Shown: positions 1 through 52,562 of the stretch, piece after piece
Position numbering within the stretch: position 1 is the first letter of the stretch
Layout: the number at the start of each line of letters is the position of its first letter
Assembly: GCA_035525015.1 (NCBI GenBank)
Contig: DATLFC010000074.1
Location: 3,277 to 67,276, forward strand
Reading direction: 5' to 3'
Length of the DNA: 64,000 nt
Source: Thermoanaerobaculia bacterium
GTDB taxonomy: Bacteria > Acidobacteriota > Thermoanaerobaculia > Gp7-AA8
Notes under the pieces: model-generated
Database searches by the model: none
Told to the model about the DNA's origin: nothing
The model's input: only the letters and a program-made list of their open reading frames with translations
Translations under genes and position numbers: made by a program

Positions 1-15
1 ATCCTCAAAATCTCG

Positions 16-12227: not shown

Positions 12228-12242
12228 TGGCAGTCGCGTTGC
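12228..12242 (+). promoter_or_regulatory. Sigma-54 (-24/-12) promoter candidate TGGCAG-N5-TTGC
   Basis: tggcagtcgcgttgct has GG and GC with exact 10-nt spacing. It lies 35 nt upstream of the GAGGGGGG Shine-Dalgarno and ATG of the small-peptide ORF, directly downstream of the EBP gene. Confidence 0.6.
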
Positions 12243-12276
12243 TCAACGGTGACCTCGACGAATGAGGGGGGAACCG

Positions 12277-12444
12277 ATGAGCAATTACGCACAAGCCCGC
12301 GCCAAAACCGAGTCGCTGCTCAGCGCCAGCTACGTTCTGCCGTCCGTGCTGGCTGTGAACACCGTGGCGCTCTTCGCGCTCGACCGGGTGGGAGGAATCC
12401 CGCACTGGATCAAGACGGCCGCTGCCCTTTTCCTCGCCTTCTGA
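12277..12444 (+). CDS. Small hydrophobic membrane peptide (55 aa), first gene of sigma-54 operon
   Basis: A strong RBS (gaggggggaaccgATG) and a hydrophobic sequence LPSVLAVNTVALFAL...AAALFLAF. There is no homology call. Confidence 0.4.
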   Translation: MSNYAQARAKTESLLSASYVLPSVLAVNTVALFALDRVGGIPHWIKTAAALFLAF

Positions 12445-22097: not shown

Positions 22098-22135
22098 GGG
22101 GCGGAACCGAGCCGGTGCAAACTCCGTGTCACTCT

Positions 22136-26132: not shown

Positions 26133-26195
26133 GCCCGGCGATTCTATCCGCCGCCGTTTGCACTGGTAGACCTTTTGCTCTGATGAGGCTCTGTT

Positions 26196-36647: not shown

Positions 36648-38582
36648 TCACGGCTTGAACTGGATCATCTGCGCGATCCAGGTCTTGACCCGTTTGCCGT
36701 CTTTCATCGGCGGCGTGTAACGGGCGGCGCGGAAGGCGCGGATGGCCGAGTCGTTGAAGCCGAAGCGCGGTTCTCCCCGGAGGATCTTCACCTCGACCAC
36801 CTCGCCGGTTTCCGAGACCAGGATGCTGGCCATGACCGTCGCTTCCATCTTCTGTCTCGCCGCAATCGGCGGATAGGACGGGCGAGGTTCCCTGATCGCC
36901 GTCGGCACCTCGTCGAGCTCACCCATGTCGACGACGTCACCCTCCCGGATCACCGGCGCGGGCGGAGGCTGCGGCGGAGGCTGCGGCGGAGGCTGGCTCT
37001 GAGGCTGCGTTTGGGTCAAAACGGGAGGAGGAGCGGCCGTGGCGGGATTCGCCAGCGGCTCCAGAGCAGCGATCTGCGTTTCCGACGTCCAGGGCCGCTG
37101 CGCCACGGTGGTCGTGATCTCTTCCTCGCGCTGCGGCATGGCGGCCGCCGGTTCCTGTTCCGCCTGGACCACGGCGGGCTGCGAAGCCACCGTCGAGGTC
37201 AGCGGTGCGTTGCGCGCCTGCTCGCGCCGGAGCTGTTGCGTGTATTCGGCCTGAAGTTTCAGCAGCTCTTCCTGAAGGCGGCGCTTCACCGCTGCGTCGA
37301 ACAGTCTCTTGCGCTCCGCTTCATCGATCTTCGGTTGCGCGGCAGGGGCGGAAGGAGCTTCCGGCTCCTCGACCGTCGGGGAAGCGACGATCGGCTCCGG
37401 GGCGACGACCGGTTGCGGCTGGGGCGCCGGCGGCGTCATCGCGCCGGCGACGTGAACCACGGGAACAGCCGGTGCCGGCCGTTTCGCGCCCAGCGTGAGC
37501 CAGGCCCCGACGCCTGCGGCAGCGAGGACCGTCGCTGCCGCGATACCCACCGCCAGTCTGCTCCTCCCTGCCGCCGGCTTCTCGGCAGCCACCGGCTGCG
37601 CTTCCGCCTGCAGATAGGGAGCGAGGCTGATCTTCGATTCCCTCTCCCGCTCGCCCGCTTCCACCTCCATCTCTTTTTTCAGGAGCGTGCTGAGATAGAA
37701 GGCGAGATTGAAACTCGTGGCGGCATAGCGGCCGCTCGAAGAGAGAGCGGCGAGCGCGGTGTGCACGTCGGATGGACTTGCGTATCGCGCCGCGGGATCG
37801 ATGTTGAGCGACTTCTCCAGAATGGAGCGGATGTCATCGGGAAGCGGATCGCCGGCCATGCTCCTGGCCGCGCGCACGGCGTGCGTAAACGCGCTCGCGC
37901 GCGTGGCGTCGGGCGGCTCATGACCCGTGACCAGAAGGTAAAGGAGTGCGCCGAGCGAGTAGACCTCGCTCGACCTGGAAGCCTGGCCTGAATGCTGCGT
38001 CTCGGGAGCGAAGTAGCGGCCGATCTCGACGGCAACCTTCTCGTCGCGCAGCGACGCGGCCAGTCCGCGCCCCAGCTGCTGCCCTGCCACGCGAATCTCC
38101 CCATCCTCTGTGATCCAGACGAACTGCGGAACGAGTCCTCCGTGCAGCAGACGCTCGGCGCCGAGTCGCAGCTCCGCCGTCGCCGCCAGCGAGAGCGCGA
38201 CACGTTCCACGACGGCGAGGGTCTGATCGAGAGGGATGGGATGCGGCGCGGACCCGGTACCGCGCGCACGGTCGACGATGTAGCGCAGGGAACGACCCGA
38301 TTCATATTCGTGCGCGATCGTGACCACGCCGTTGATGACCGTGATCTGCTGCTCTTTGACGAACGTCGGACCGGTGAGCGACTCCGCGATCTGCTCCGCC
38401 GACTGCGCGGCCGCAAGGAGTGCCTCGCTTCCGCCGCTGAACCGGCGCAGGGCCACCACGCGCCCCGGCGCGCCGTCCTCGATCCTCACCGCCCGGAAGA
38501 GATCGCCGAGTGCATCCGACTCCAGCTTTTTCAGCAGAACGTAAGGACCGAACGTCTCGTAAGGCCTTGCCTTTGCGGCCAT
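36648..38582 (-). CDS. Membrane-spanning pseudokinase (Ser/Thr kinase-like) fused to TonB C-terminal domain
   Basis: Kinase fold has the APE region retained, HRD replaced by HGG, no DFG and a degenerate Gly loop. One transmembrane helix, then a Pro-rich spacer (PPPQPPPQPPPAP). TonB_C motifs at the C-terminus (ARYTPPMKDGKRVKTWIAQMIQFK). Confidence 0.7.
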   Translation of the reverse strand: MAAKARPYETFGPYVLLKKLESDALGDLFRAVRIEDGAPGRVVALRRFSGGSEALLAAAQSAEQIAESLTGPTFVKEQQITVINGVVTIAHEYESGRSLRYIVDRARGTGSAPHPIPLDQTLAVVERVALSLAATAELRLGAERLLHGGLVPQFVWITEDGEIRVAGQQLGRGLAASLRDEKVAVEIGRYFAPETQHSGQASRSSEVYSLGALLYLLVTGHEPPDATRASAFTHAVRAARSMAGDPLPDDIRSILEKSLNIDPAARYASPSDVHTALAALSSSGRYAATSFNLAFYLSTLLKKEMEVEAGERERESKISLAPYLQAEAQPVAAEKPAAGRSRLAVGIAAATVLAAAGVGAWLTLGAKRPAPAVPVVHVAGAMTPPAPQPQPVVAPEPIVASPTVEEPEAPSAPAAQPKIDEAERKRLFDAAVKRRLQEELLKLQAEYTQQLRREQARNAPLTSTVASQPAVVQAEQEPAAAMPQREEEITTTVAQRPWTSETQIAALEPLANPATAAPPPVLTQTQPQSQPPPQPPPQPPPAPVIREGDVVDMGELDEVPTAIREPRPSYPPIAARQKMEATVMASILVSETGEVVEVKILRGEPRFGFNDSAIRAFRAARYTPPMKDGKRVKTWIAQMIQFKP

Positions 38583-38676
38583 CACTACCTCGCGATGCAG
38601 AGTTATTGTTATGGACAAAGGTAAGGATAGCACCAGACCGGCCAGGAGTCAGGCGGGCTGGGGCATGGAAGTCTGC

Positions 38677-39800: not shown

Positions 39801-40160
39801 CGTGGCGGCGTACATGTCGATGTCGTCTGTCCTTTTCCGCCGTCTGCGGCCTCCGGCGCGCAGCCGCTCCGCAGCCTCGACGGTACTGAGGGTTTCGTCC
39901 CAGAGAATGACCGGTTTGCAGGTTTTTTGCCGCAAGCGCTCGGCGAGGTCGTGGAACTTCTGCTCGCCGGCCGCGCTGCGGGGGCGGCGCGGCAGACCGA
40001 GGATCAGCGTCTCCGCTCCGATCTGGCCGGCGATCTCGGCGATCCGGGCCACCACGTCCCCCTCGTTCCGAAGCACGGAATGAGGAGAGGCCAGGAGACC
40101 GGAGTCGCTGACCGCGATGCCGATCCGCTTCCCGCCGTAGTCGATGGCCATCAGGGACAT
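39753..40160 (-). CDS. ruvX: Holliday-junction resolvase-like RuvX (YqgF)
   Basis: MAIDYGGKRIGIAVSD is the RNase H-like YqgF signature. This is the conserved ruvX-mltG gene pair. Confidence 0.9.
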   Translation of the reverse strand: MSLMAIDYGGKRIGIAVSDSGLLASPHSVLRNEGDVVARIAEIAGQIGAETLILGLPRRPRSAAGEQKFHDLAERLRQKTCKPVILWDETLSTVEAAERLRAGGRRRRKRTDDIDMYAATVILQSYLDARAGRTS

Positions 40161-40230
40161 CCACCGATTCTAGGACAGTCCCTCGCGGATCGATGCCGAC
40201 CGGCTACAATGGCGCGGCCCGGAGGCTCCG

Positions 40231-41376
40231 ATGAAAAACTTCAATCTCGACGCCATCCTCGAGGCGATGCTGAAGATGTCTGACCGGGTGTCGGACCTGA
40301 ATTTCTCCGTCGGGCGGCAGCCTCAGGTCGAGGTCGACGGGCAGCTCGCGGCGGTCAACTTCCCGGGCCTTCCCCGTCTGACGCCGTACCAGACCGAGAT
40401 GATCGCCATGCACATGCTGCGCGGCGACCGCGAGGCCACCCGGACCCTGGTGCAGAACGGGTCGATCGACGTCTCCTACTCCATCCCCGGCAAGACGCGG
40501 TTCCGAGTGAACATCTTCTCGCAGCGCGGTACGTACGCCATCGTGCTCCGCGTCATCCCCGACGGCATCCCCAGCCTGGAGTCGCTGAAGTTTCCCAAAG
40601 AGCTTTACAACATTCCGAAACTGAAGAACGGAATCGTCCTCGTCACCGGACCAACGGGGTCGGGGAAGTCGACCACGCTTGCCGCCTTGATCAATCAGAT
40701 CAACCTGGATCACGCCTATCACATCCTCACCATCGAGGATCCGGTGGAGTACATGCACCGGCACATCAAGTCGACAGTGAATCAGCGCGAAGTGGGGTCC
40801 GACACGAAGACGTTCGCGCTGGCGCTCCGCGCCGCGCTCCGGCAGGCGCCGAAGGTGATCCTCATCGGCGAGATGCGCGATGTCGAGACCATCGAGATCG
40901 CCATGGAGGCGGCCGAGACGGGGCACCTGGTGCTCTCCACGCTGCACACCATCGATGCGGCGAAGACGGTCGACCGCATCATCGGCGTCTTCCCGAAGGA
41001 TCAGGAGCCGCAGATCCGGACGCGCTTTTCGCAGTCGTTCCGATACGTCATCTCGCAGCGTCTTCTTCCGAAGGTCGGAGGCGGGCGTGTGGCGGCGCTG
41101 GAGATCCTCAAATCGACGATGCGCACGCGCGACTACGTGATGAAGGGAGAGACGGAAGGCCGGTCTCTGACCGATGCCATGCACGACGGGCAGGTCGACG
41201 GCATGCAGACCTTCGACGACGAGATCGAAAAGCTCTGGAACAACGGCATGATCTCGAAGGAGACCGCCCTGGCCTATGCCACCAACCCCACCAATCTCGC
41301 GCTTCGCATGACCGACGAGCCCACCTCGGCGGGGAAGAAGTCGGACGAGAACTCGATGCTGTCGATGCTGGAGTGA
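40231..41376 (+). CDS. pilT: Type IV pilus retraction ATPase PilT
   Basis: Walker A GPTGSGKSTT, the Asp box, Walker B, and the His box GHLVLSTLHT. 381 aa with an AIRNLIRE-like C-terminus. Confidence 0.9.
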   Translation: MKNFNLDAILEAMLKMSDRVSDLNFSVGRQPQVEVDGQLAAVNFPGLPRLTPYQTEMIAMHMLRGDREATRTLVQNGSIDVSYSIPGKTRFRVNIFSQRGTYAIVLRVIPDGIPSLESLKFPKELYNIPKLKNGIVLVTGPTGSGKSTTLAALINQINLDHAYHILTIEDPVEYMHRHIKSTVNQREVGSDTKTFALALRAALRQAPKVILIGEMRDVETIEIAMEAAETGHLVLSTLHTIDAAKTVDRIIGVFPKDQEPQIRTRFSQSFRYVISQRLLPKVGGGRVAALEILKSTMRTRDYVMKGETEGRSLTDAMHDGQVDGMQTFDDEIEKLWNNGMISKETALAYATNPTNLALRMTDEPTSAGKKSDENSMLSMLE

Positions 41377-41380
41377 GCGG

Positions 41381-42016
41381 ATGATCAAGATCACCTGCAC
41401 GAGCTGCCAGAAGCCGCTCTCGCTCGACGAGACGAAGCTTCCGATGAAGGAAGTGAGCTTTCCCTGCCCGGTGTGCAAGACGAAGCTGACGGTGGACCGG
41501 CGCAATCTGACCGCCGAGGGCCCGGCGTCTCCCGCGGCATCGCGGGGCGTGCCGGCTGCGCCGGTTCAGGACAACGGCGACGACGACAACGAGAACGAGT
41601 TCGGCGCGAAGGCTTTCCTGGTCGGCACCGACAGCCCGGCGCTGCGCCAGGCGGCGAAGCTCATCGGATACCTGCCGGTCTTCTACGCCACGGCCGAGCA
41701 GGCCCGCGACCGTTTCATGCAGGACGCGCCGCAGGTTGTGTTTCTCAGCCCGCCCCAGATGACGCCGCCGCCGCTCGAGGCCATGCAGCCGATCATCGGG
41801 CTGCTGCCGGCGGACCGGAGGAAGTCGTTCTTCATCCTCATCTCCGACAATCTGCGCACGCTGGACGGCAATGCCGCGTTTCTCTACGGCGTGAATCTGA
41901 TCGTGGCTACGAAAGACCTCGGCAATTTCTCGCAGATCTTCCGTGACGCCTACGGCTACCACGAGCGGCTCTACGCGAGCATGAATTCGGTGCTGCGGGC
42001 GATGGAAGGCGGCTGA
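41381..42016 (+). CDS. MJ0042-type zinc-ribbon protein with degenerate receiver-like domain
   Basis: N-terminal CxxC...CPxC (CTSCQK...CPVCKT). The C-terminal half has a REC-like alpha/beta pattern but lacks a phospho-acceptor Asp (LSPPQM). 4 nt downstream of the pilT stop. Confidence 0.5.
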   Translation: MIKITCTSCQKPLSLDETKLPMKEVSFPCPVCKTKLTVDRRNLTAEGPASPAASRGVPAAPVQDNGDDDNENEFGAKAFLVGTDSPALRQAAKLIGYLPVFYATAEQARDRFMQDAPQVVFLSPPQMTPPPLEAMQPIIGLLPADRRKSFFILISDNLRTLDGNAAFLYGVNLIVATKDLGNFSQIFRDAYGYHERLYASMNSVLRAMEGG

Positions 42017-42025
42017 CCGCCCTAC

Positions 42026-42556
42026 TCAGTGCGCCTGGACACCTTCGGGATACTGCACGAACACGCCGCGGGTGAAGAGGATGTCATCGTTGAAGTTCGT
42101 CACCCCTCCGCCGGGGCTGGAGGCGTCGGCATCCCATCCCTCCGCGCCGTCAGGGGAGCCGTTCTTGCCGGCGGACCAGATCAGGTATTCGTCGGCCTTC
42201 GCCGGATCGCCCATCGGCTGATCGGCCCGGAAGCGAAACGGGTTGCCCCACCCGTCGAGACCGGGGACCACCTTGGAGTAGGTCGGAACGAGAGCGGTTC
42301 TAAGGTCGTCGTGGGAGACTGGTTCACTGCAGACGGTGATGATCGACAGCGCGCCGGCGGCGTTGTATCGGTGGAGGTCCGTCGAGCGCGCTTCCCACGC
42401 CGTGGCGATGGAACGGATGTCCGACATCGTTCGTTTCTGCCGCGCGCGGTGGAGCGCGTTGAGCAGGTTGGGAACGGCGATGGCGGCCAGGATCCCGATG
42501 ATCGCCACGACGATCAACAACTCGATGAGCGTAAACCCGCGGTCGTGCTTCCTCAT
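42026..42556 (-). CDS. Type IV pilin / pseudopilin (prepilin N-methylation domain), paralog 2
   Basis: Leader MRKHDRG followed by FTLIELLIVVAIIGILAAIA, the class III signal. C-terminus shared with paralog 1 (YPEGVQ). Confidence 0.8.
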   Translation of the reverse strand: MRKHDRGFTLIELLIVVAIIGILAAIAVPNLLNALHRARQKRTMSDIRSIATAWEARSTDLHRYNAAGALSIITVCSEPVSHDDLRTALVPTYSKVVPGLDGWGNPFRFRADQPMGDPAKADEYLIWSAGKNGSPDGAEGWDADASSPGGGVTNFNDDILFTRGVFVQYPEGVQAH

Positions 42557-42602
42557 AGTCTGGCTCCGTCTCTCTGCTTTCCGGAGCTCCGACCCCCCAT
42601 GT

Positions 42603-42630
42603 GGGGACGGGCGCCCGATGGCGCCCGTCC
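42603..42630 (-). terminator. Perfect 12-bp GC hairpin between the two pilin genes
   Basis: gggacgggcgcc-cgat-ggcgcccgtccc lies 28 nt downstream of the pilin-1 stop. It resembles an attenuating terminator after a major pilin gene. Confidence 0.55.
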
Positions 42631-42657
42631 CGCTGAACAACTAAAGGGTTCCGGAGG

Positions 42658-43152
42658 TTAGTTCTGCTGAACGCCCTCGGGGTACTGAATGAACGAACCG
42701 TTGGAGAAGATGATGTCGCTGTTGAAGTTCGTCGTTGCGCCGCCCAGGTACGTCCCGTCGGCTTTGGCGTCCTTGCCGGTCGAGTGGATCATGTAGTTCT
42801 GAGCCTGACCAGCAGCGCTGCCCCACGCCAGATCGGTGAGGAACGCGTAGGTGTTGCCCCAGCCGTCCTTCATCGGAAGGTTCTTGATGTACGTCGGCTG
42901 CAGCGCAGCCGGCAGCTGGGTGTGGACCTGCGCCGTCAACAGGGTGAGACCGGCCGCGTTGTAGCGGTTGAGGTCCGTCGCGCGCGCTTCCCACGCCGTC
43001 GCGATCGAACGCATGTCGGCCATCGTCCTCTTCTGCTTCGACCGCTGCATCGCGGTCAGAAGGTTCGGAATGGCGATTGCCGCGAGAATGCCGATGATCG
43101 CAACGACGATCAGCAGCTCAATGAGGGTGAAACCTTTCTGCTTCCTTGTCAT
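42658..43152 (-). CDS. Type IV major pilin candidate (prepilin), paralog 1
   Basis: ATG at 43152 preceded by AAGGAGGAAG-N5. Leader MTRKQKG then FTLIELLIVVAIIGILAAIA. The listed ORF extension begins at a TTG, not an ATG. Confidence 0.8.
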   Translation of the reverse strand: MTRKQKGFTLIELLIVVAIIGILAAIAIPNLLTAMQRSKQKRTMADMRSIATAWEARATDLNRYNAAGLTLLTAQVHTQLPAALQPTYIKNLPMKDGWGNTYAFLTDLAWGSAAGQAQNYMIHSTGKDAKADGTYLGGATTNFNSDIIFSNGSFIQYPEGVQQN

Positions 43153-43199
43153 GAACTTCCTCCTTTTCAAACCTCCCTAAGCGCAACCGGTGTACCAGT

Positions 43200-43214
43200 C
43201 GTCGTCGTTCGCGG
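43200..43214 (-). promoter_or_regulatory. Sigma-54-type -24/-12 element TGGTAC-N5-TTGC upstream of pilin 1
   Basis: The minus-strand sequence cTGGTACaccggTTGCg has GG-N10-GC spacing. It lies 48 nt upstream of the pilin ATG. Confidence 0.45.
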
Positions 43215-43306
43215 AAGCCCTTGTGTTGCAGATGTTTGTCGATTTTTGTCGATCGAGAATGGGCGCTGTTTTGACAGTAATTCTACCGCGCCGCTGACAG
43301 TTTTTG

Positions 43307-44728
43307 TCAGGCCGGGAAGGCCCACGTCCGGATGAGCCGGCGGGTGAATTCGAGCCCCCGGACGAAGTACGCCACCCGGAGGCGCTCGTCGGCGGCATGG
43401 ATGGACTCGCTCTGGAAAAAATCGACCGCGAAGGGATTGATTCCGTAGGCGTCGATTCCGCGCCGGCGCAGGAATCGTGAGTCGCTGGAGGAGCGACTCA
43501 GAAATTCCGTTCCGGCGGGCGCCTGAAACTCGGCCGATGCCTCGCGGGCCAGCAGCTCGTAGAACGGTGTGTTCGCCGAGGAGACCGGAACCGGCTCGGC
43601 GGCGTTGCGCACCCTCTCGATCCGCGCGCCGAACGGGGCGATGACTTCGGTAAGCCATTCGATCCGTCCGGCCGGCTCCTCGTCCGGCAGGCTGAGAAAC
43701 GTCACGGCCATCCTGAAGTCGCCTTCCGGCCGCGGCTCGATCTGCCAGACGAACACGTTGTTCTGCGTCAGCTCGCGGTAGCCGATCGGGAGCCGCCAGA
43801 ACTTTCCACGTGCGATCGTGCCGTCGATGTCGGCGAGCCATTCCCGAAACTGGATCCGCTGCGGCGCAATGTCGCGAAAAAAACGACGGACTTCCGGCAG
43901 CACGCGATGTGGCTCGGGGTCGGGGGTGAACCACGGTTCCAGGGCGATCCGTGCCTGCTGGAGTTGCCCGCGCGCCGGCGCGACGACCTCGACCGTGGTG
44001 TGGATCTTCGACCCGACTTCGATTCCGTAATACGTCACCCGCTCGGCCGACATCTCGGTGATGCCGCCTTCGTTCAGCGCGTAGCGGACGCCCTCCACGA
44101 CGTGCGGCCGGTGCTCGAGCAGCCACTTCATGCCCCAGGTCCCGCCGGCCTCTTCATCGGCCACGGCCAGGAAGACGAGATCGTGTTCCGGCTGACGCCC
44201 GCTCGCGGCGACGTCGAGGAATGCGCGGAGGAACACGATGCCGACGCTCTTCATGTCGAGTGCACCGCGGCCGTAGAGGTGATCGAGCCGGATGACTCCT
44301 TCGAACGGCGGATGCGACCACTCCGCCTCTCTGGCCGGTGCCACATCGATGTGATGCAGCAGGAGGAGACCCGATCCGTCGCGCTTCCCCTCGATACGCG
44401 CGTAGACGTTTCCGCGCCCGGGAGCGGACTCGATGACCTCGGCCTCCAGTCCCGCGGCGCGGATCAGTCCCGCCAGCCACTGCGCGGCCGGCATTTCGTT
44501 GCCGGGTGGATTCGAAGTGTCGAAGCGGATGTACTGCCGGACCAGTTCCACTTCCGGCGTGACGACGGTCGGCGTGGGGATGTAGGTGGCCTCGCGCTCG
44601 TGCTCCTCATCGAGGCGCTGCGAGTAGAGCCAGAGCCCGGCCGTCAGTGCCGCAGCGACGAGCACGACGATCGCGGCGACGATTCGTTCGTTGCGGTGCC
44701 GCCGTTTCCGTTCTTCAGGTGAGCGCAA
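43307..44728 (-). CDS. Membrane-anchored M20-family metallopeptidase (ArgE/DapE/CPG2-like)
   Basis: N-terminal transmembrane helix. M20 metal-binding motifs (LLLLHHIDVAPA, ALDMKS, AVADEEAGG, LNEGG). Confidence 0.8.
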   Translation of the reverse strand: MRSPEERKRRHRNERIVAAIVVLVAAALTAGLWLYSQRLDEEHEREATYIPTPTVVTPEVELVRQYIRFDTSNPPGNEMPAAQWLAGLIRAAGLEAEVIESAPGRGNVYARIEGKRDGSGLLLLHHIDVAPAREAEWSHPPFEGVIRLDHLYGRGALDMKSVGIVFLRAFLDVAASGRQPEHDLVFLAVADEEAGGTWGMKWLLEHRPHVVEGVRYALNEGGITEMSAERVTYYGIEVGSKIHTTVEVVAPARGQLQQARIALEPWFTPDPEPHRVLPEVRRFFRDIAPQRIQFREWLADIDGTIARGKFWRLPIGYRELTQNNVFVWQIEPRPEGDFRMAVTFLSLPDEEPAGRIEWLTEVIAPFGARIERVRNAAEPVPVSSANTPFYELLAREASAEFQAPAGTEFLSRSSSDSRFLRRRGIDAYGINPFAVDFFQSESIHAADERLRVAYFVRGLEFTRRLIRTWAFPA

Positions 44729-47057
44729 CGTTCCTCCGGAGGAGAGCGGTCAGCGCGAGGAGAGCCACCGCTGCCGCGCTGATCGCCGCGCCGAGCTCGA
44801 TCACTCGATTCCGGTAACGCATCGCCACCCGGTGTGTTCCACGCTCGACGACGATTCCCTGAAACCCGATGTTCGTGACGACCGGTGGGACCGGTCTGCC
44901 GTCGATCGAGACGCGCCAGTGGCGGTGCGGGGTGACGCTCATGACCAGAAACGACTTCCCGGCGGCCTCGACGTCGATCGACGCGCGGTTGGCGGTCTCG
45001 CGTACGGCGAGCACCTTCCCGTCAGCGGGTCTGAAGGGGCGGCCCTCGATGAAGGCAACGCGCGGGCCGTGGCGGCCGGCGACGAGATGGTGGACGAATT
45101 CCGCCCGGCCGCTGATGGGCACCAGCTGATCGGCGAAGTAATAGCGCGGGTGGTGTTCCCTCTCGACGAAGCGCACGGGGCGCGAGCTCTCGTAATCTGA
45201 CGCGCCGGCCGGCGTCTGGTTCTCCACGACTCCGACGTACCAGGCGTTGGCCATGGCCAGAAACGGCGTCAGCCAGTCCTGCCGGCCAGCGTTGCGCACG
45301 TCCCACATCGCTCTCGTGAATTCGGTCGACGGAGCGAGTGCCGTCTCGTCGTAGTCGCGTTCGAGCACCGTCTGCAGATCGTACGCGGCCGGCATCATCG
45401 GGAAAAGACCGTTCTTGACGATCCAGTACCTGGCGTCGCGCTGCGGGTATTCGAAACCGATCGTGTCCCCGCTTTGCCAGTCGGCGAGATGGAAGATTCG
45501 ATAGGCGTTCCGGTCGGGATGAAACCCATCCACCACGGGCGGCGTGGATGTGAAGAACCCCCCCGGCATCCGTGGATTCAGTTCCCGGACTACGAATCCG
45601 AGGTCGGCGATCACAAACAGAAGCGCTGCGCCGGCCCAGATCGTACGGCGGGACCGCACCGCGGTGGCGACGATCACGAAAAGAACGAGGCCGCGCCCCG
45701 CCGCGACGCTCCAGCCGGTCCAGGCGATGCCGGCCAACTGCACGGTGGCGGGATCCGCGCGGTCGAGACCGAAAAAGCCGGTCCACATCGTCAGAGAAGC
45801 CGGCCACAATCCCAGAAGCGACATGGCGGCGGCGGTGAGGGCCGTGGCAAGGGCGAATCCGGCCGCCGCGGATCGAATCGCCTTGTCTTCGTCGAGCAGC
45901 CGTTCGCAGACGCTGGCCGCGAAGACCGTGAGGACGAAGATCGCCATCAGAAGAAACTTTTCGGGATAGCGGATCTTCGTCGCCACGCCTGCGTCGTAGA
46001 GCAGGCGGAGGAGCGGTGTGTGGCTGCCGAGAGCCAGGAGCAGCGAAATCACCGTGACCGCGGCGACGAACGAGGTTCCGCGGGTGCGCCGGACGAATCC
46101 GGCGGCCGCCAGCGCGACGACGGCCAGGCCGGGGTAGATGCTGAAGAGGAACGGAGCACCCATGGGGGCGTACAGCCGGCCGCCCCAGTAGCGGATGTCG
46201 CCATCGCGCTGCACATGGCCGAGGAAGTTGGGGAAGACGAACTCGATCAGCTTCCCCCAGGGAGTGCTCCACGCCTCGACCAGCTGGAAGGGAAACGAAT
46301 GTGCGCGCGCGGAATCGCCGGCGTGATCGATCGCCGGAAGCAGCTGCACGGCACCGACCGCGAACGCCGCTCCGGCGATGAGCGCGATCCAGCCGATGTT
46401 GGCCGCCACCGCGAGGCCGCGCGCTTCCGATCGGAGGCCGCGGTAGATCGCATACATACCGAGGAGAAAGCCGGTCTGCAGGAGCGTGGTCGGCTCCGCC
46501 ACGAGGCACTGCAGTCCGAAAAAGAGTGCGGCGAGCGCGAAGTCGCGCGGCCGTCTGTCGATCAGGAACCGGCGGACGAAGAGACACGTCGCCGGCAGCC
46601 AGGCGGCGCAGAAGAGGATCGGCAGCAGGTTGATCCAGGAGAGAACGAGGCCGCCCATCCCCCAGGAGAGGGCGCCGAAGCAGGCCGCCGGTGCCCGGAT
46701 GCGCATCGAGCGCAGCAGCGCGTACATCGCCAGCAGCGCGACGTAGATGTGCACGAGGATGTGCAGCCGGTACCCGAGATCGAAGTCCGGGAGCATGAGC
46801 AGCCAGGTGAGTGGATAGAAGATCTCGTGTTCCGGATTGGCGGCCAGCGGCTGTCCGGCGTGGAAGTAGCGGTTCCAGAGGGGGAACTCGCCGCCTTCGA
46901 CGATCCGGCCGTAAATCTGCTTCGTGGGGTAGTAGTAGCGGGTCAGATCGCGCGCGGCGAAATTCGTGAGGCCCAGCAGCACGTCGCCGAAGAAGAGCGT
47001 CGGCAGCAGGAGAAGGAGGGCGACGGCGAGGAGATCGTGCCGCTGCGGGGCCCTCAT
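44715..47057 (-). CDS. YfhO-family GT-C membrane glycosyltransferase, tandem paralog 1 of 3
   Basis: 780 aa. N-terminus RDLTRYYYPTKQ...GEFPLWNRYFHAGQPLAANPEHEIFYP. 12-14 transmembrane helices and a C-terminal periplasmic domain. ATGA overlap with the upstream paralog. Confidence 0.75.
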   Translation of the reverse strand: MRAPQRHDLLAVALLLLLPTLFFGDVLLGLTNFAARDLTRYYYPTKQIYGRIVEGGEFPLWNRYFHAGQPLAANPEHEIFYPLTWLLMLPDFDLGYRLHILVHIYVALLAMYALLRSMRIRAPAACFGALSWGMGGLVLSWINLLPILFCAAWLPATCLFVRRFLIDRRPRDFALAALFFGLQCLVAEPTTLLQTGFLLGMYAIYRGLRSEARGLAVAANIGWIALIAGAAFAVGAVQLLPAIDHAGDSARAHSFPFQLVEAWSTPWGKLIEFVFPNFLGHVQRDGDIRYWGGRLYAPMGAPFLFSIYPGLAVVALAAAGFVRRTRGTSFVAAVTVISLLLALGSHTPLLRLLYDAGVATKIRYPEKFLLMAIFVLTVFAASVCERLLDEDKAIRSAAAGFALATALTAAAMSLLGLWPASLTMWTGFFGLDRADPATVQLAGIAWTGWSVAAGRGLVLFVIVATAVRSRRTIWAGAALLFVIADLGFVVRELNPRMPGGFFTSTPPVVDGFHPDRNAYRIFHLADWQSGDTIGFEYPQRDARYWIVKNGLFPMMPAAYDLQTVLERDYDETALAPSTEFTRAMWDVRNAGRQDWLTPFLAMANAWYVGVVENQTPAGASDYESSRPVRFVEREHHPRYYFADQLVPISGRAEFVHHLVAGRHGPRVAFIEGRPFRPADGKVLAVRETANRASIDVEAAGKSFLVMSVTPHRHWRVSIDGRPVPPVVTNIGFQGIVVERGTHRVAMRYRNRVIELGAAISAAAVALLALTALLRRNVALT

Positions 47058-49393
47058 TCGGCCTCAGCTCGCCTGGGCCGCCGGGACGGAACGGCCGCGG
47101 CGACCAGAAGCATCACCGCCGCCGCGGCACTCACCGGCCACACCGCCGCGATCACACCGTTTCGATACTGCATCGCCACGCGATGACGCCCGGCCGGCAC
47201 CACCACTCCCTGGTATCCGATGTTCGTCACGACCGGCCGGACCTTTCTGCCGTCGATTGTGACATGCCAGTACTTGTGGGGGGTGACGCTCATGACCAGA
47301 AACGCCCGGCCGCCCGCGAGGACATCGATGACGGCGGTATTCGGCGACTCCGAGACCGCGAGCACCTCGCCCGCAGCAGGGGCGAAGCCGCTGCCTGTCA
47401 CGAATGCGACCCGGCCGGCATGGGAGCCGGCGGTCACTTTGCGCACGAAGTCGTCGAGATCGGCGACGGGCACGATCTGGTCGGCGAAGTAGTAGCGCGG
47501 ATGGCGCCCGACCTCGACGAACTCCACCGGCTCCGCGCGCGTGTAGTCGCCGCCGACGCGATCCCGCTCCTCTTCGAACGGCCGGAACACGGCCCGATAC
47601 CGGACGTTCGACATCGCCACGAATGGACGCCACCAGTCCGGACGCCCTTCCGCTCGGACCTGCAGCATCGCGGCCGTCAGGTCGCGCGTCGGCAGAAGCG
47701 CGGTCTCGTCGTAGTCGCGCTCGAGCGCGGTCCGGATCCCCCATGCCGCCGGCATCGGAGGGAAAAGACCGTTGCGCACGACGAAGTAGGGAGCAACGCC
47801 TCCTGAGAAATACCGCCGCCCTTCGGGACCGCCGGCGCCCCAGTCGGCTTCGTGGAAGAGGCGGTAGTCATCACGATCCGGCAGCAGCGGATGCAGCGAC
47901 GGCGGTGCCTCGGTGAAAAACGCGGACGGCAGGCGCGGGTTGATCTGCTGCGCGATCCTGCCGACATCCCAGCAGACGAAGAGGAGTCCCGCCGCGAGCC
48001 AGAGATGCTTCCGCGCCATGCGCATGGTGACGAGGAGGATGAAGAGGAGAAAGCCATGGAGTGCGGCCATCATCCAGTCGCTCCAGGCCATCGCCCCGAG
48101 CGCCATGGTGAATTCGTTCGACGGGAGCCCGAACGTGCCGAGCCATACGTCGGGGCGCATCCGCACCAGAAGCGAGACCGCGGCGGCGAGGAGGGCGGTG
48201 GCCAGGGCGAAGGCAGCGGCGGCCGCGCGGATCCGTTCGTCGCCCTCCAGCGCGCCGGCGAGCATCCGCGCGGCGAGCACGCTGATCGCGAAGATCGCGA
48301 GGAGGATGAACTTCTCCGGATAGCGGACCGACGTGGCGATGCCCGCGTCGTACAGGAATCGCAGCAGCGGCGTGTGACCGCCGGCCGCCATCAGAACCGA
48401 AAGGGCGACGAGTCCGAGCACGAAACGCCCCCCGCGCGGGCGTGCGAAGAAGGCGGCGGCAGCCAGCGCCGCGGCGGCCAGCCCCGGGTAGATGCTGTAG
48501 ACGAATGGAGAGGTTCTCGGCTCGTACAGCCGTGCACCCCAGTAGGCCATCTCCACTCCGGCGCGGCCGAGCACGTTCGGGTAGACGAGCTCGAGGAGTT
48601 TCGCCCACGGCATGCTCCACGTCTGGACGAGCGCGAACTCGAACGGCCGTGCCCGGGCCGAGTCGCCGAGATGATCGGCGGCGGCCAGCAGTTGCACGGC
48701 GCCGACGGCGGCGCCGCAGAGACCGACCAGCGCGACGAGGCCGATGTTGCGAAGCGTCCGTCCGTCGCGCCATCCTCTGTACAAGCCGTACAGACCGATC
48801 AGGAGCGCGGTCTGGAGAAGCGTCGTCGGTTCGGCGACCAGACACTGGATCCCCAGGAAGAGCGCCGCCAGAGCGAAGTCGCGCCGGTTCGGCTGCAGGA
48901 GCAGACGCCTCGCGAACAGAGCCGTCAGCGGCAGCCACGCCGCGCAGAAGAGGATCGGCAGCAGGTTGACGTAAGAGAGGAAGAGGCCGCCCATTCCCCA
49001 GGAGCTGGCCCCGAACACGGCCGGCGCCGCGCGCAGCCGCATCGACCGCAGCAGGGCATACATCCCCAGCAGGGCGATGTAGATGTGGAGGAGGATGTGC
49101 AGCCGGTACCCGAGATCGTAGTCGGGGAGCATCAGCAGCCAGGTCGGCGGATAGAAGATCTCGTGCTCGGGATTGGCGGCCAGCGGCTGCCCGGCGTGGA
49201 AGTAGGGGTTCCAGAGCGGGAACTCCCCCTGCCGGACGATGTGCCGGTAGACCTGCTTGGTCGGGTAGTAGTAGCGGGTCAGATCGCGCGCCGCGAAGTT
49301 GCGGAATCCGAGCAGCACGTCGCCGAACAGCAGCGTCGGCAGAAAGAGAAGAAGAGCGACGGCGAGGAGGTCGTGCCGCCGCACCGCGTTCAT
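47054..49393 (-). CDS. YfhO-family GT-C membrane glycosyltransferase, tandem paralog 2 of 3
   Basis: Start reset to MNAVRRHDLL at 49393 (ATGA overlap with paralog 3). The Arg-rich 183-aa ORF extension is rejected. Same motif set as paralog 1. Confidence 0.75.
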   Translation of the reverse strand: MNAVRRHDLLAVALLLFLPTLLFGDVLLGFRNFAARDLTRYYYPTKQVYRHIVRQGEFPLWNPYFHAGQPLAANPEHEIFYPPTWLLMLPDYDLGYRLHILLHIYIALLGMYALLRSMRLRAAPAVFGASSWGMGGLFLSYVNLLPILFCAAWLPLTALFARRLLLQPNRRDFALAALFLGIQCLVAEPTTLLQTALLIGLYGLYRGWRDGRTLRNIGLVALVGLCGAAVGAVQLLAAADHLGDSARARPFEFALVQTWSMPWAKLLELVYPNVLGRAGVEMAYWGARLYEPRTSPFVYSIYPGLAAAALAAAAFFARPRGGRFVLGLVALSVLMAAGGHTPLLRFLYDAGIATSVRYPEKFILLAIFAISVLAARMLAGALEGDERIRAAAAAFALATALLAAAVSLLVRMRPDVWLGTFGLPSNEFTMALGAMAWSDWMMAALHGFLLFILLVTMRMARKHLWLAAGLLFVCWDVGRIAQQINPRLPSAFFTEAPPSLHPLLPDRDDYRLFHEADWGAGGPEGRRYFSGGVAPYFVVRNGLFPPMPAAWGIRTALERDYDETALLPTRDLTAAMLQVRAEGRPDWWRPFVAMSNVRYRAVFRPFEEERDRVGGDYTRAEPVEFVEVGRHPRYYFADQIVPVADLDDFVRKVTAGSHAGRVAFVTGSGFAPAAGEVLAVSESPNTAVIDVLAGGRAFLVMSVTPHKYWHVTIDGRKVRPVVTNIGYQGVVVPAGRHRVAMQYRNGVIAAVWPVSAAAAVMLLVAAAVPSRRPRRAEAE

Positions 49394-51756
49394 GCCGGTT
49401 CGGCCGCCGGGAGGGGGCGTCGTCGTGCAAAGACGGCCACGAGAATGAGGAGCGTGGCGGCGGTCGCGCTGACCGGCATCCCGACGGCGATCCTGTCGTT
49501 GCGGTACTGCATCGCCACACGATGCCGCCCCGGCGGTACCACCACGCCCTGATATCCGATGTTCGTCACGACCGGCTGGACCTTTCTGCCGTCGATTGTG
49601 ACACGCCAGTACTTGTGAGGCGTCACGCTCATGACCAGAAAGGCGCGCCCGTCGGTCTCGACGTCGATCACCGCGCTGTTCGACCGCTCGCGCAGACCGA
49701 CGACCTTCCCGTTCGCCGGCACGAACGGCTGCAGCTGCACGAACGCGACGCGCTCGCTGTAGTCTTCGCCGGCCAGCTTCTTCACGAAATCCTTCCGGTC
49801 GCGGATCTGCACGAGCTGATCGGCGAAGTAGTAGCGCGGGTAGTGCTTCCCTTCGATGAAGCGGACCGGAATCGACTTCGTGAAGTCGCCCTTCGTCCTC
49901 TTCTTCTCTTCCTCGAAGTCGCGATGGACGCCGCGGTACCACGCGTTCGACATCGCCATGAACGGCTGGTACCAGTCCGCTTTCCCGGCGCGCTTCACGT
50001 CCCAGACCGACTCGGTCAGGTCGATGGTCGGCAGCAGCGCCGTCTTGTCGTAGTCGCGCTCGATGACCGTCCGCACTCCGTGTCCGACCGGCGTCATCGG
50101 GAAAAGGCCGTTGCGCACGACCCAGTAGACCGCGGCGCCGGTTGAAAAGTATTTCCGCGCCATTTCATCGCCGCCGTACCAGTCCGCCTCATGAAAGACC
50201 CGATAGGCCGGCTGATCGGGATGGAGCGTCTGCACCGCCTCCGGCGTCCGGGTGAAGAAGCGGCGGGGCATGCGGGGGTTGAGCTCGTGCATCACCGGTC
50301 CAAGGTCGGCGCACAGGAAGATCAGTCCGGCCGTCAGCCAGACCGTCCGGAACCGCGTGCCGATGGTGAGCAGGAGTCCGACCAGAACACCGCCGCGGAC
50401 CGCGGCCACGATCCAGTCGACGCGCGAGAGCGCGATCATCCGGTTGGCGCCCGCTCCCTCGGCCAGCCCCCAGATCTTGCGAAACCCTTCGGCGTAGAGC
50501 GGTGTGAACGCGAGCGCCGCCAGGGCGGCCGCCACGACGGTCGTAGCCAGCGCGAATCCGGTGGCGGCCTCGCGCGCCCGTTCGTCGCCGGCGAGAAGCG
50601 TATCGAGAGTGTGCGCGGCGAAGACGATGATCGTGAAGACCGCGATGAGGATGAACTTCTCCGGATAGCGGACCGACGTGGCCACGCCGGCGTCATAGAG
50701 AAGACGGAGAAGCGGCGTGTGTCCGCCGAGGGCGATGACCGTGGAGAACAGGACGAGAGCGAGGACGAACCACCGTTCCCGCCCCCGGGTGAACACGCCG
50801 GCGACCGCGAGCGTGATCACCGCCAGGCCGCCGTAGATGCTGAAGAGGAACGGGGACCCCATGCCGGGATAGACGCCGCCGGCCCAGTACCACATGACGC
50901 GATCGACGGCGATGTGCCCGAGGAGGTTGGGGTAGACGAGCTCGGCGAACTTCGCCCACGGCATGCTCCACGCCTTGACGAGGGAGAAGTCGAAGGCGCG
51001 CGCGCGCGCGGAGTCGCCGACGTGATCGATGGCCGCCAGCATCTGCACGGCGCCGACGGCGAACGCGCAGGCGGAGATCGCCGCGATCCAGCCGGTGTTG
51101 GCGAGCATTCTGCCGATTCCGCCGTCCTTCCACCCGCGGTACAGGCCATACGTGCCGATGAGAAACCCGGTCTGCATGACCGTGGTCGGCTCGGCGACGA
51201 GGAACTGCATCCCCAGCGAGAGGGCGCCGAGCGCGAAGTCGCGCGGGAGCTTCCACAGCAGAAAACGACGGACGAACAGACAGGTCAGCGGCAGCCACGC
51301 CGCACAGAAGAGAATCGGCAGGAGGTTGATGTAGGAGAGGTATACGCCGCCGAGGCCGAAGCTCACCGCCCCGAAGAACGCGGCCGGCGGTGACAGGTCC
51401 ATCGAGCGCAGCAGCGCGTACATGCCGAGCAGGCCGATGTAGATGTGCACGAGGATGTGCAGGCGGAATCCGTAGTCGTAGCTCGGAAGCAGGATGAGCC
51501 AGGTGAACGGATAGAAGATCTCGTGCTCCGGGTTGGCCGCGAGCGGCTGGCCGGCGTGGAAGTAGCGGTTCCAGAGCGGCAGCTCGCCGCCGAGTACGAT
51601 CTCCCGGTAGATCTGCTTGGTCGGGTAGTAGTAGCGCGTCAGGTCGCGCATGTAGAAGTTGCCGAGCCCGGCAAGGACGTCGGCGAAGAAGAGAGTCGGA
51701 AGAAGGAGAAGAAGCGCGATCGCGAGCCGATCGGAACGGCGGGACGATCCGTTCAT
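49390..51756 (-). CDS. YfhO-family GT-C membrane glycosyltransferase, tandem paralog 3 of 3
   Basis: 788 aa with the same conserved N-terminal block. Start overlaps the GT2 stop (ATGA). Confidence 0.75.
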   Translation of the reverse strand: MNGSSRRSDRLAIALLLLLPTLFFADVLAGLGNFYMRDLTRYYYPTKQIYREIVLGGELPLWNRYFHAGQPLAANPEHEIFYPFTWLILLPSYDYGFRLHILVHIYIGLLGMYALLRSMDLSPPAAFFGAVSFGLGGVYLSYINLLPILFCAAWLPLTCLFVRRFLLWKLPRDFALGALSLGMQFLVAEPTTVMQTGFLIGTYGLYRGWKDGGIGRMLANTGWIAAISACAFAVGAVQMLAAIDHVGDSARARAFDFSLVKAWSMPWAKFAELVYPNLLGHIAVDRVMWYWAGGVYPGMGSPFLFSIYGGLAVITLAVAGVFTRGRERWFVLALVLFSTVIALGGHTPLLRLLYDAGVATSVRYPEKFILIAVFTIIVFAAHTLDTLLAGDERAREAATGFALATTVVAAALAALAFTPLYAEGFRKIWGLAEGAGANRMIALSRVDWIVAAVRGGVLVGLLLTIGTRFRTVWLTAGLIFLCADLGPVMHELNPRMPRRFFTRTPEAVQTLHPDQPAYRVFHEADWYGGDEMARKYFSTGAAVYWVVRNGLFPMTPVGHGVRTVIERDYDKTALLPTIDLTESVWDVKRAGKADWYQPFMAMSNAWYRGVHRDFEEEKKRTKGDFTKSIPVRFIEGKHYPRYYFADQLVQIRDRKDFVKKLAGEDYSERVAFVQLQPFVPANGKVVGLRERSNSAVIDVETDGRAFLVMSVTPHKYWRVTIDGRKVQPVVTNIGYQGVVVPPGRHRVAMQYRNDRIAVGMPVSATAATLLILVAVFARRRPLPAAEPA

Positions 51757-52562
51757 CGCGTCGTCGGCGCGACGTCCGGCGCGGCCGTCGAGACGGAGCG
51801 GGGGCGGAAGATCGGATGCGACCAGACGCCTTTCTTGTGCAGCTTGTACAGGACCATCGTCTTCAGGATGGCCAGACCATACCGGACCGAGCGCCAGAAT
51901 CCGATCTGCGACGCCTCGTCGAAGTAGCGGGTCTGGATCGGCACTTCGCGGATGAGCATCCTGGCGGCCACGCCCTGCGCGATGATCTCCGTGTCGAAGA
52001 CGAAATCATCCGAGTTCGCCTCGAAGTGAACGCTTTCCAGGTAACGGCGCGAATAGGCGCGGAACCCGGAGTGGTACTCGGACAGGAAGACGTAGAACGT
52101 CGCGTTCTCCACCATCGTCAGAAAGAGGTTGGCGAAGTACTTCCACTTCGGCATCCCCCCTTCGATCGGACGCCCGCCGAGCATGCGGGAGCCGAAGACG
52201 GCATCGCACTCGCCGCGCAGCAGCGGCTGGACGAGCTGGGGGATGATCTTCGGGTCGTACTGGTGATCGGGATGCACCATCACGACGATGTCGCCGGTCA
52301 TCTCGTCGAGGGCGGTCCGGTAGCAGGTCTTCTGGTTGCCGCCGTAACCCCGGTTCTGCGGGTGCACGATCGTGCGGATGCCGAGCTGCCGTGAGAGCTC
52401 GACGGTGCCGTCGCGCGAACGGTCATCGACCAGGAGAATCTCGTCGACCCAGTCCTTCGGGATGTCGTCGAACGTGGCCTGCAGAGTCTTCTCGGCGTTG
52501 TACGCCGGCAGCACGGCCACGACTTTCTTCTCCCGCAGGGGCACGGCGCGCGAGGATAACAC
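51753..52562 (-). CDS. GT2 polyprenol-phosphate sugar synthase (DPM1/CsbB-like)
   Basis: GT-A motifs (VAVLPAYNAE, LLVDDRSRDGT, the DAD-like DIVVMVHPD). GTG start 2 nt after the upstream stop. Confidence 0.85.
   Translation of the reverse strand: MLSSRAVPLREKKVVAVLPAYNAEKTLQATFDDIPKDWVDEILLVDDRSRDGTVELSRQLGIRTIVHPQNRGYGGNQKTCYRTALDEMTGDIVVMVHPDHQYDPKIIPQLVQPLLRGECDAVFGSRMLGGRPIEGGMPKWKYFANLFLTMVENATFYVFLSEYHSGFRAYSRRYLESVHFEANSDDFVFDTEIIAQGVAARMLIREVPIQTRYFDEASQIGFWRSVRYGLAILKTMVLYKLHKKGVWSHPIFRPRSVSTAAPDVAPTTR

Follow-up and report, generated by a model that had tools for sequence, protein, structure and literature searches.

Organization of the locus

How does a bacterium of the class Thermoanaerobaculia express two tandem pilin genes that run tail to tail into the genes for a PilT-family ATPase and a protein with a zinc ribbon and a receiver-like domain, and do these four genes serve one filament? 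The question is raised by positions 40,231 to 43,309 of a 64,000-nucleotide (nt) stretch of contig DATLFC010000074.1 (assembly GCA_035525015.1), hereafter called the window. The explanation that we consider rather probable is that two type IV filament functions meet here tail to tail, namely a pilin unit under sigma-54 control and a convergent operon for the ATPase and the zinc-ribbon/pseudo-receiver protein (Zn-receiver protein). Thermoanaerobaculia are abundant, almost uncultured Acidobacteriota of soil and sediment, and our literature search returned nothing specific on pili or surface filaments of this class.

For comparison, 80 species-level Thermoanaerobaculia loci were retrieved via the zinc-ribbon protein, and their genes were mapped with tblastn. 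Promoter, enhancer and hairpin counts refer to the 60 loci with a complete pilin gene and at least 200 nt of upstream sequence. The family alignment of the Zn-receiver protein comprised 43 diverse sequences, and the pilin alignment and profile comprised 34 members. The features of the locus are as follows, with a slash at the G/F junction of the prepilin leaders:

40231-41376, plus strand: divergent paralog of the PilT/PilU family of hexameric ATPases, 381 amino acids (aa), from TIGR01420 and Pfam T2SSE
41381-42016, plus strand: Zn-receiver protein, 211 aa, with a zinc ribbon (residues 1-40), a disordered linker (43-75) and a pseudo-receiver (77-210)
42026-42556, minus strand: prepilin 2, 176 aa, leader MRKHDRG/F
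42604-42631, minus strand: stem-loop with a perfect 12-bp stem and a 4-nt loop
42658-43152, minus strand: prepilin 1, putative major subunit, 164 aa, leader MTRKQKG/F
43156-43165, minus strand: ribosome-binding site AAGGAGGAAG, read from the sequence, with its core GGAGG 6 nt before the ATG of pilin 1
43182-43197, minus strand: sigma-54 -24/-12 element TGGTACACCGGTTGCG, a motif match
43272-43277, minus strand: enhancer half-site CTGTCA, assigned by visual comparison with relatives
43295-43309, minus strand: putative sigma-54 activator-binding site, palindrome TGACA-N5-TGTCA, assigned by conservation

The G+C content of the window was 66%. At third codon positions (GC3), it was 0.84-0.89 for the ATPase gene, the Zn-receiver gene and both pilin genes, a range typical of genes here.

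The control region of the first pilin gene

The element TGGTACACCGGTTGCG (TGGTAC-ACCGG-TTGC at 43197-43183) differs from the consensus TGGYAY-N5-TTGCW by one mismatch at the last, weakly conserved position, and its GG and GC are 10 nt apart. By itself this match was not significant: four matches with at most one mismatch occurred in the 64 kb, as opposed to 1.76 expected, and 11 of 100 shuffles reached four. The evidence came from its position in the relatives: 55 of 60 loci had such an element at 20-45 nt upstream of the start codon of the promoter-proximal pilin, and the background chance was at most 0.0014 per gene. Over the 1.6 Mb scanned, the motif rate was 0.055 per kb, and most matches were the pilin sites themselves. 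An earlier note, made from the sequence of the window alone, had proposed a sigma-54-type promoter for the first pilin; the element is indeed present, stands before pilin 1 only and is conserved. We therefore regard the promoter of pilin 1 as probably sigma-54 dependent. Transcription would start near 43171 and give a 19-nt leader carrying AAAGGAGG. The perfect Shine-Dalgarno sequence reported by the same note was found as AAGGAGGAAG at 43165-43156, and AAGGAGG-type sites were present at the same place in the relatives.

The upstream part of the control region was not among the features named in the earlier note. We aligned 74 upstream regions at the -24 element and compared them visually, which brought out the palindrome TGACA-N5-TGTCA. 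In the window, the -24 element starts 112 nt downstream of the 5' end of this palindrome. With up to two mismatches, the palindrome was found in 55 of 60 loci, and its spacing to the -24 element was 108-112 nt in 46 of these 55, whereas it occurs once in the 64-kb window. The left half of the palindrome includes the TGA stop codon (43307-43309) of the upstream M20 peptidase gene, both here and in most relatives, indicating that the M20 and pilin genes have long been joined. In the relatives, a half-site of the form AAAnCGTCA/GTGTCA follows about 14 nt after the palindrome, and CTGTCA is its counterpart in the window. An element resembling a binding site of integration host factor (YAA-N4-TTGAWW) lay between palindrome and promoter in about 25 of 60 loci, and none was seen in the window. 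Judged from these motifs, the control region of pilin 1 is built in the usual way of promoters that depend on a sigma-54 activator.

Some observations on the same region stand apart. A direct repeat, ATCGACAAA(A)ATCGACAAA, lies at 43237-43256 on the minus strand between the half-site and the promoter and is specific to this genome. A sigma-70 scan of 39900-43600 found no promoter; by eye, a TACAAT is visible before pilT at 40205-40210, where a good -35 element is absent. The Rfam search gave zero matches in the window at gathering scores and zero in 41900-43400 at an expectation value (E) of up to 1, so the 5' leader and the hairpin do not belong to a known RNA family.

The only sigma-54 activator gene found in the window by the Pfam scan encodes a GAF-type protein (10542-12068), 31 kb from the pilin promoter. 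Nothing ties this gene, whose product the earlier note had suggested testing as the activator, to that promoter, and the palindrome was found nowhere else in the window. Three further sigma-54-like matches are intergenic and correctly oriented, at 12228-12243 (plus), 22116-22131 (minus) and 26164-26179 (plus). One of them lies just after the activator gene, before a small open reading frame (ORF; 12278-12444) and a pair of genes for an RsbW-like kinase and a GAF-SpoIIE phosphatase; this sigma-54-like site right behind the activator gene suggests a local target instead. Of the other two, one precedes an ABC permease operon and one a holin-X-like gene.

A conserved stem-loop behind the first pilin gene

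The transcript of the pilin genes can fold into the stem-loop GGGACGGGCGCC-AUCG-GGCGCCCGUCCC (DNA arms GGGACGGGCGCC / GGCGCCCGTCCC), which begins 26 nt past the stop codon of pilin 1 and ends 47 nt before the ATG of pilin 2. The perfect 12-bp GC hairpin described earlier between the two genes was thus confirmed at 42604-42631. The 126-nt intergenic region with the hairpin had a folding energy of -53 kcal/mol (z = -3.1). The window has one copy of the hairpin core GGGCGCC..GGCGCCC, as opposed to 0.08 expected, and the 797 kb of related loci searched have about 80, almost solely downstream of pilin genes. A generic repeat or a DNA-uptake sequence was also considered as a reading of the hairpin and was rejected on account of this confinement. 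In 52 of 60 loci, a similar hairpin lay no more than 90 nt from the stop codon of a sigma-54-driven pilin.

The stem appears to be under selection as RNA. Positions 8-11, which the search pattern left unconstrained, were paired in 73-87 of 90 distinct copies, with AT, GC and CG pairs alternating; these compensatory changes point to selection on the RNA stem. The loops in the relatives were often UUCG or GNRA. Most relatives had a T-rich tail with 4-8 Ts behind the hairpin, and the hairpins are ordinary intrinsic terminators there.

Two types of pilin array could be distinguished. In the first, enhancer site, promoter and terminator are repeated for each pilin. The second, to which the window belongs, has a promoterless second pilin that follows shortly after the hairpin and abuts the convergent Zn-receiver gene. 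Among 38 pilins that were not the first of their array, 21 were promoterless, and 6 of these 21 had a hairpin of their own. Hairpins before a promoterless pilin had fewer Ts in the 8-nt tail than the others (mean 4.1 vs 5.1; one-sided Mann-Whitney p=0.002, not corrected for phylogeny). The weaker tails fit selection for leakiness. Prepilin 2 of the window likewise lacks a promoter of its own, with no upstream -24/-12 match, and has a weak ribosome-binding site, GGAG. Its stop codon is 9 nt from that of the convergent Zn-receiver gene (42014-42028), with no terminator between them, and pilin 2 as far as the hairpin would probably be covered by antisense transcripts of the pilT/Zn-receiver operon. 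In one relative (L002, 8771-11595), two additional genes, for proteins of 490 and 461 aa without a Pfam match, separate the pilin pair from the Zn-receiver gene; they lie on the pilin strand and may encode pilus-associated cargo.

Two pilins with a GspG-like head

Both prepilins are present as previously described, with the leaders listed above and the shared C-terminal YPEGVQ. The ORF list extends both of them to upstream TTG codons, and the ATG starts used here were set by alignment with homologues. The two proteins share 57% identity. Pilin 1 has more than 7,800 homologues, the best 120 of which are 68-98% identical to it. Each of the two has a class III signal peptide, consisting of a short basic leader, Gly at -1, Phe at +1, Glu at +5 and a hydrophobic helix. 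Accordingly, Pfam N_methyl (42.6 bits for pilin 1 and 41.4 bits for pilin 2, cut-off 21.2) and TIGR02532 (38.5 and 38.8 bits, cut-off 16.3) matched well above their cut-offs. Pfam T2SSG (PF08334) also matched above its cut-off of 21 (37.2 and 25.0 bits). The GspG model TIGR01710 scored 74.3 and 71.2 bits, which is under its equivalog cut-off of 88.85.

In the pilin family, Y157, E159, G160 and Q162 of the C-terminal motif were invariant, P158 was nearly so and V161 was mostly conserved. The conserved segment that ends in this motif reaches past the end of the GspG model. Pilin 1 has no cysteine and pilin 2 has one, showing that the C-terminal disulfide D-region of PilA-type pilins is absent. 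When the family profile was compared with solved structures, many pilins were matched, but over the N-terminal helix only. Taken together, both proteins are type IV filament subunits with a GspG-like head. Pilins with such a head are automatically named type II secretion proteins despite a gene context like that of a major pilin, which calls for caution in annotation.

The ATPase is a divergent PilT paralog

The ATPase upstream of the Zn-receiver gene scored 406.2 bits with TIGR01420 (cut-off 319.1) and matched Pfam T2SSE with E=5e-47; its Walker A motif GPTGSGKST is present. Among solved relatives, PilT of Thermus, Aquifex, Pseudomonas and Geobacter scored 264-319 bits, with 275-319 bits for the first three, and PilU 235 bits. 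However, the C-terminal AIRNLIRE is missing, with TMRTRDYV in that position, and the C-terminal tail is charged. In four distant loci (L004, L091, L095 and L096), the orthologous ATPase is the second and longer one (387-391 aa), behind an ATPase of 358-363 aa, and the first ATPase of L004 and L091, whose sequences were read, has A(A/V)(A/R)NLIRE. The name pilT given in the earlier note therefore holds for the family but not for canonical PilT, behind which this type of protein sits in other phyla. We prefer to call it a PilT paralog that has a PilU-like position.

The sets of PilT, long paralog and Zn-receiver gene in these four loci span 3682-5982 in L004 (a Nitrospirota metagenome-assembled genome, MAG), 5616-7901 in L091, where they adjoin DivIVA and YggT, 4716-6966 in L095 and 2719-4997 in L096.

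A zinc-ribbon/pseudo-receiver protein always next to the ATPase

The ORF list confirmed that the Zn-receiver gene begins 4 nt past the pilT stop codon, as had been noted before, with a GGAG inside the end of pilT. The 211-aa protein is 100% identical to a hypothetical protein from a Thermoanaerobaculia MAG. A word search gave 1,568 matches to the family, which fell into 386 clusters at 50% identity and were all unnamed or carried spurious automatic names. C6, C9, C29 and C32 of the CxxC-X19-CxxC motif were invariant in the alignment, as were R146 and R147, whereas D162, A166 and F167 were nearly so. A cyclic di-GMP or PilZ-like reading of the invariant RR was considered and rejected, as neither an RxxxR nor a D/NxSxxG pattern is present.

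The AlphaFold2 model of the 211-aa protein, with a predicted local distance difference test score (pLDDT) of 88.6, showed a four-stranded zinc ribbon, a disordered linker rich in Pro, Ala and acidic residues, and a (beta-alpha)5 domain. In a Foldseek search of the PDB, this protein matched receiver domains including the pseudo-receivers of FrzS, TadZ/CpaE and CikA (E of about 1e-4 to 1e-3, target-normalised TM-scores of 0.55-0.70). The family profile also matched solved receiver domains, with E of 1e-5 to 1e-3. By sequence, PF00072 (E up to 0.1) was not matched by the window protein; 2 of the 43 family members did match it. The position equivalent to the phospho-acceptor Asp57, at the end of beta-3, is occupied by Ser123 in the window protein and by Asn in distant members. 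Since the phospho-acceptor Asp is absent, the domain is a pseudo-receiver, and the earlier description of a zinc ribbon joined to a receiver-like fold without phospho-Asp is supported by model, search and residue alike. For the MJ0042-type or Zn_ribbon_4 character of the ribbon, PF13717 scored 25.9 bits in the window protein (cut-off 30.3) and matched all 43 family members at E up to 0.01, the best with 7e-12; TIGR02098 gave nothing on the window protein at E up to 0.1. The best solved match of the ribbon was that of GltJ/AgmX (PDB 7zok, E=2e-6).

The Zn-receiver gene lay directly downstream of the PilT paralog in all 79 close loci with upstream DNA. The same order was found in nine of nine independent distant lineages, at 27-37% identity; these include the Nitrospirota MAG and one MAG labelled Pseudomonadota, and their other neighbouring genes are wholly different. 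This is strong evidence that the ATPase and the Zn-receiver protein are a functional pair, and the two may be in direct contact. Our literature search found no paper on a zinc-ribbon/receiver protein adjoining PilT.

Proposed mechanism and significance

In the explanation that we favour, a sigma-54 activator would bind some 110 bp before the promoter, at the palindrome TGACA-N5-TGTCA and the half-site downstream of it, and would switch on sigma-54 RNA polymerase at TGGTAC-N5-TTGC. The 19-nt leader with its near-perfect ribosome-binding site would allow high translation of prepilin 1 as the major subunit. Most transcripts would end, or be stabilised, at the GC stem-loop, and prepilin 2 would be made solely from the fraction that reads through. 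A prepilin peptidase would then cut both prepilins at G/F, and machinery encoded elsewhere would assemble them. On the plus strand, the operon would supply the divergent PilT/PilU-family ATPase and, by translational coupling, the Zn-receiver protein. The latter would most likely bind the ATPase, or tether it to a polarity or platform partner, and thereby set where or when the filament retracts. Its pseudo-receiver is not open to phosphorylation and would therefore work by contacts with other proteins.

The Zn-receiver gene thus probably encodes a regulator of the ATPase. More tentatively, and with rather less confidence than we place in the explanation as a whole, we propose that the protein is the dedicated partner of a distinct clade of PilT paralogs (long, without AIRNLIRE, with a charged tail) and serves as an unrecognised, GltJ-like switch of retraction or polarity in at least Acidobacteriota and Nitrospirota, as well as in the MAG labelled Pseudomonadota. 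The occurrence of the gene pair in more than one phylum suggests a new accessory factor of PilT-type ATPases. The targeting and switching of retraction motors are little settled beyond a few model organisms, and a ZitP/GltJ-type ribbon joined to a pseudo-receiver is a concrete candidate for such a role. The conserved control region, with palindrome, promoter, ribosome-binding site and stem-loop, can be tested in reporters; it may also guide the search for the cognate activator and the prediction of pilin expression in metagenomes.

Points against the proposal and alternative explanations

Several results weigh against the proposed explanation. A Pfam survey of about 50 ORFs revealed no pilB, pilC, pilD or pilMNOPQ gene in the window, which for all but pilD had been claimed before and is upheld, and no PilR-type activator. 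The pilins adjoin the pilT/Zn-receiver pair only within Thermoanaerobaculia, and three relatives with enough flanking sequence have no pilins near it; the two of these with the longest flanks (L016 and L078) lack the M20/YfhO block too. In relatives whose pilins have parted from the pilT/Zn-receiver pair, the M20 gene and its YfhO-like neighbour remain beside the pilins. The term "compact module" in the earlier note was therefore too strong, as some relatives keep pilT and the Zn-receiver gene without a nearby pilin, and it is the M20/YfhO block with which the pilins move. Within the class, synteny extends to unrelated housekeeping neighbours and is, by itself, no proof of shared function. The hairpin of the window has the tail CACATGGG, with one T in 8 nt and no U tract, and the terminator scan did not call it. 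Because the U tract is absent, its role as a terminator in this genome is uncertain, and it may terminate poorly. The read-through control of a minor pilin proposed in the earlier note fits the promoterless pilin 2 and the weaker T tails before such pilins, and partial termination at this hairpin may be envisaged. Finally, the pilin head matched solved structures of GspG only (PDB 5wda and 3g20), and the profiles that matched it were likewise those of GspG only. The AlphaFold2 model of the pilin was weak (pLDDT 69) and Foldseek returned no PDB match with E below 0.06; the fold was thus no guide as to whether the protein is PilA-like or GspG-like.

These head-domain matches raise the question whether both proteins are GspG major pseudopilins of a type II secretion system encoded elsewhere, with the adjacency to pilT a coincidence of synteny. 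T2SSG lies above its cut-off for both, TIGR01710 is the top NCBIfam match and covers nearly the full model, homologues are named "type II secretion system protein G" by JGI, a cysteine pair is absent as in GspG, and the pilins are apart from pilT and the Zn-receiver gene in some relatives. However, the TIGR01710 scores (74 and 71 bits) stay under the equivalog cut-off, the conserved C-terminal segment exceeds the GspG model, and gsp genes were found neither in the window nor in the 80 related loci. The genes form arrays of one to three tandem copies with their own sigma-54 promoter, enhancer site, strong ribosome-binding site and terminator, which is the usual layout of major pilin genes. In addition, a PilT-family ATPase implies a retractile pilus and hence the need for a major pilin. 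The earlier note had named a GspG-type pseudopilin as what would speak against its proposal; with the matches of the head domain, this has come half true. We consider the pseudopilin explanation unlikely and favour a type IV pilus, an identity that has to be inferred since the head matches GspG only. It is less likely still that pilin 2 is a silent or decaying duplicate without a role. Such a fate would suit its missing promoter, weak ribosome-binding site and likely antisense exposure, and promoterless copies are less conserved (59% identity to the window pilins vs 63% for first pilins). On the other hand, its ORF is intact with a coding-typical GC3 of 0.84, its signal peptide and YPEGVQ tail are preserved, and promoterless second pilins are intact in 21 arrays of other species.

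The stem-loop might instead stabilise the 3' end of the mRNA or act as a processing barrier, or it might be a bidirectional stop shared with the convergent pilT/Zn-receiver operon, in which case pilin 2 would be mainly under antisense transcription. The missing U tract of the window copy agrees with these roles, and UUCG or GNRA loops and a stem of high stability are what one expects of a protective hairpin. Furthermore, the hairpin of single-pilin relatives sits between the convergent Zn-receiver gene and the pilin with an A tract on one side and a T tract on the other, and so looks bidirectional. In the window, the 9-nt gap that parts the stop codon of the Zn-receiver gene from that of pilin 2 holds no terminator. 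The T tails in pilin sense in most relatives argue in the other direction. We regard this alternative as possible but doubtful; it has the same outcome, more pilin 1 than pilin 2, and refines the proposed explanation more than it replaces it. For the Zn-receiver protein, a nucleic-acid-binding or general signalling function with mere co-transcription seems quite improbable. Nucleic-acid binding is common among zinc ribbons and annotators have given the family RNA-binding or Trm112-type names, but these automatic names are based on the zinc ribbon alone. Strict adjacency to one type of PilT paralog amid completely different neighbours speaks against such a function, and the closest solved ribbon, that of GltJ, binds proteins (PMC11135422), as does the zinc finger of ZitP, to which that paper reports it to be structurally similar.

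Other genes of the window

Further genes of possible interest in the window are the following:

1-825, plus strand: PilZ-domain protein, from the Pfam scan
26919-27995, minus strand: DprA (DNA processing, natural transformation), from the Pfam scan
36648-38633, minus strand: 661-aa fusion protein in which a long Pro-rich linker joins a Ser/Thr-kinase-like N-terminus to a TonB C-terminal domain
44715-52562, minus strand: three tandem YfhO-like (GT-C type) membrane proteins and a GT2 glycosyltransferase, which together with the M20 peptidase lie just upstream of the pilins on the same strand

The functions of DprA and PilZ are frequently associated with type IV pili. Both genes share the window with the pilin/pilT locus, but neither is linked to it. 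In the flanks that were read (L001 and L002), the gene for the kinase-like/TonB protein is a conserved upstream neighbour, followed by YceG, RuvX and then pilT. A role of the YfhO and GT2 genes in pilin glycosylation is only a guess.

Comparison with known systems

The pilA promoters of Pseudomonas and Myxococcus are sigma-54 and PilR dependent. The same control is established for pilA of Geobacter sulfurreducens (PMC2725144). The pilin 1 unit resembles these genes in having a -24/-12 element directly before the gene of a major pilin, an activator site about 100 bp upstream and the form of a single-gene unit suited to high expression. It differs from them in that no PilS/PilR genes are adjacent and that the palindrome TGACA-N5-TGTCA is fused to the M20 stop codon. 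The promoter/terminator layout is thus of a known kind in a new lineage. The pilins themselves are homologous to GspG in the N-terminal helix and head, over almost the whole GspG model, and share with it the lack of a disulfide; their KDG...DxDI stretch presumably sits at the place of the GspG calcium-binding site. They are set apart from GspG by the sub-equivalog scores, the extra YPEGVQ segment, and the stand-alone tandem genes with a sigma-54 promoter and no gsp neighbours.

On the other strand, the ATPase recalls the pilT-pilU arrangement as a TIGR01420 member that in L004, L091, L095 and L096 follows a PilT of canonical length. It differs in being nearer to the solved PilT structures than to PilU, in lacking AIRNLIRE, in its charged C-terminal tail and in the Zn-receiver gene that always follows it. 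The Zn-receiver protein shares a receiver fold without phospho-Asp, and a link to a pilus system, with FrzS of Myxococcus (PDB 2gkg/2i6f) and TadZ/CpaE (PDB 4lda and 4dn6), which ranked high among its Foldseek matches. However, its identity to them is only 16-20%, it contains neither a coiled coil of the FrzS type nor a ParA/MinD ATPase of the TadZ type, and it has a signature of its own, with RR before beta-4 and T-x-D-x-x-x-A-F in alpha-4.

The N-terminal part resembles a second group of proteins. The ribbon of GltJ, a part of the Myxococcus motility machinery, binds the linker of GltJ itself and MglB and acts as a switch, and it is structurally similar to the zinc finger of ZitP (PMC11135422). 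Caulobacter requires ZitP, whose ribbon binds PopZ, for the biogenesis of its pili (PMC5182063, PMC5182065). Like GltJ/AgmX (PDB 7zok) and ZitP, the window protein combines an N-terminal CxxC-X19-CxxC ribbon, a flexible linker and a second, protein-binding domain. In contrast to them, this second domain is a pseudo-receiver and not a GYF or DUF3426 domain, a transmembrane segment is absent and the genetic link is to a PilT paralog. The ATPase/Zn-receiver pair therefore appears to be an undescribed variant of the receiver-type pilus regulators.

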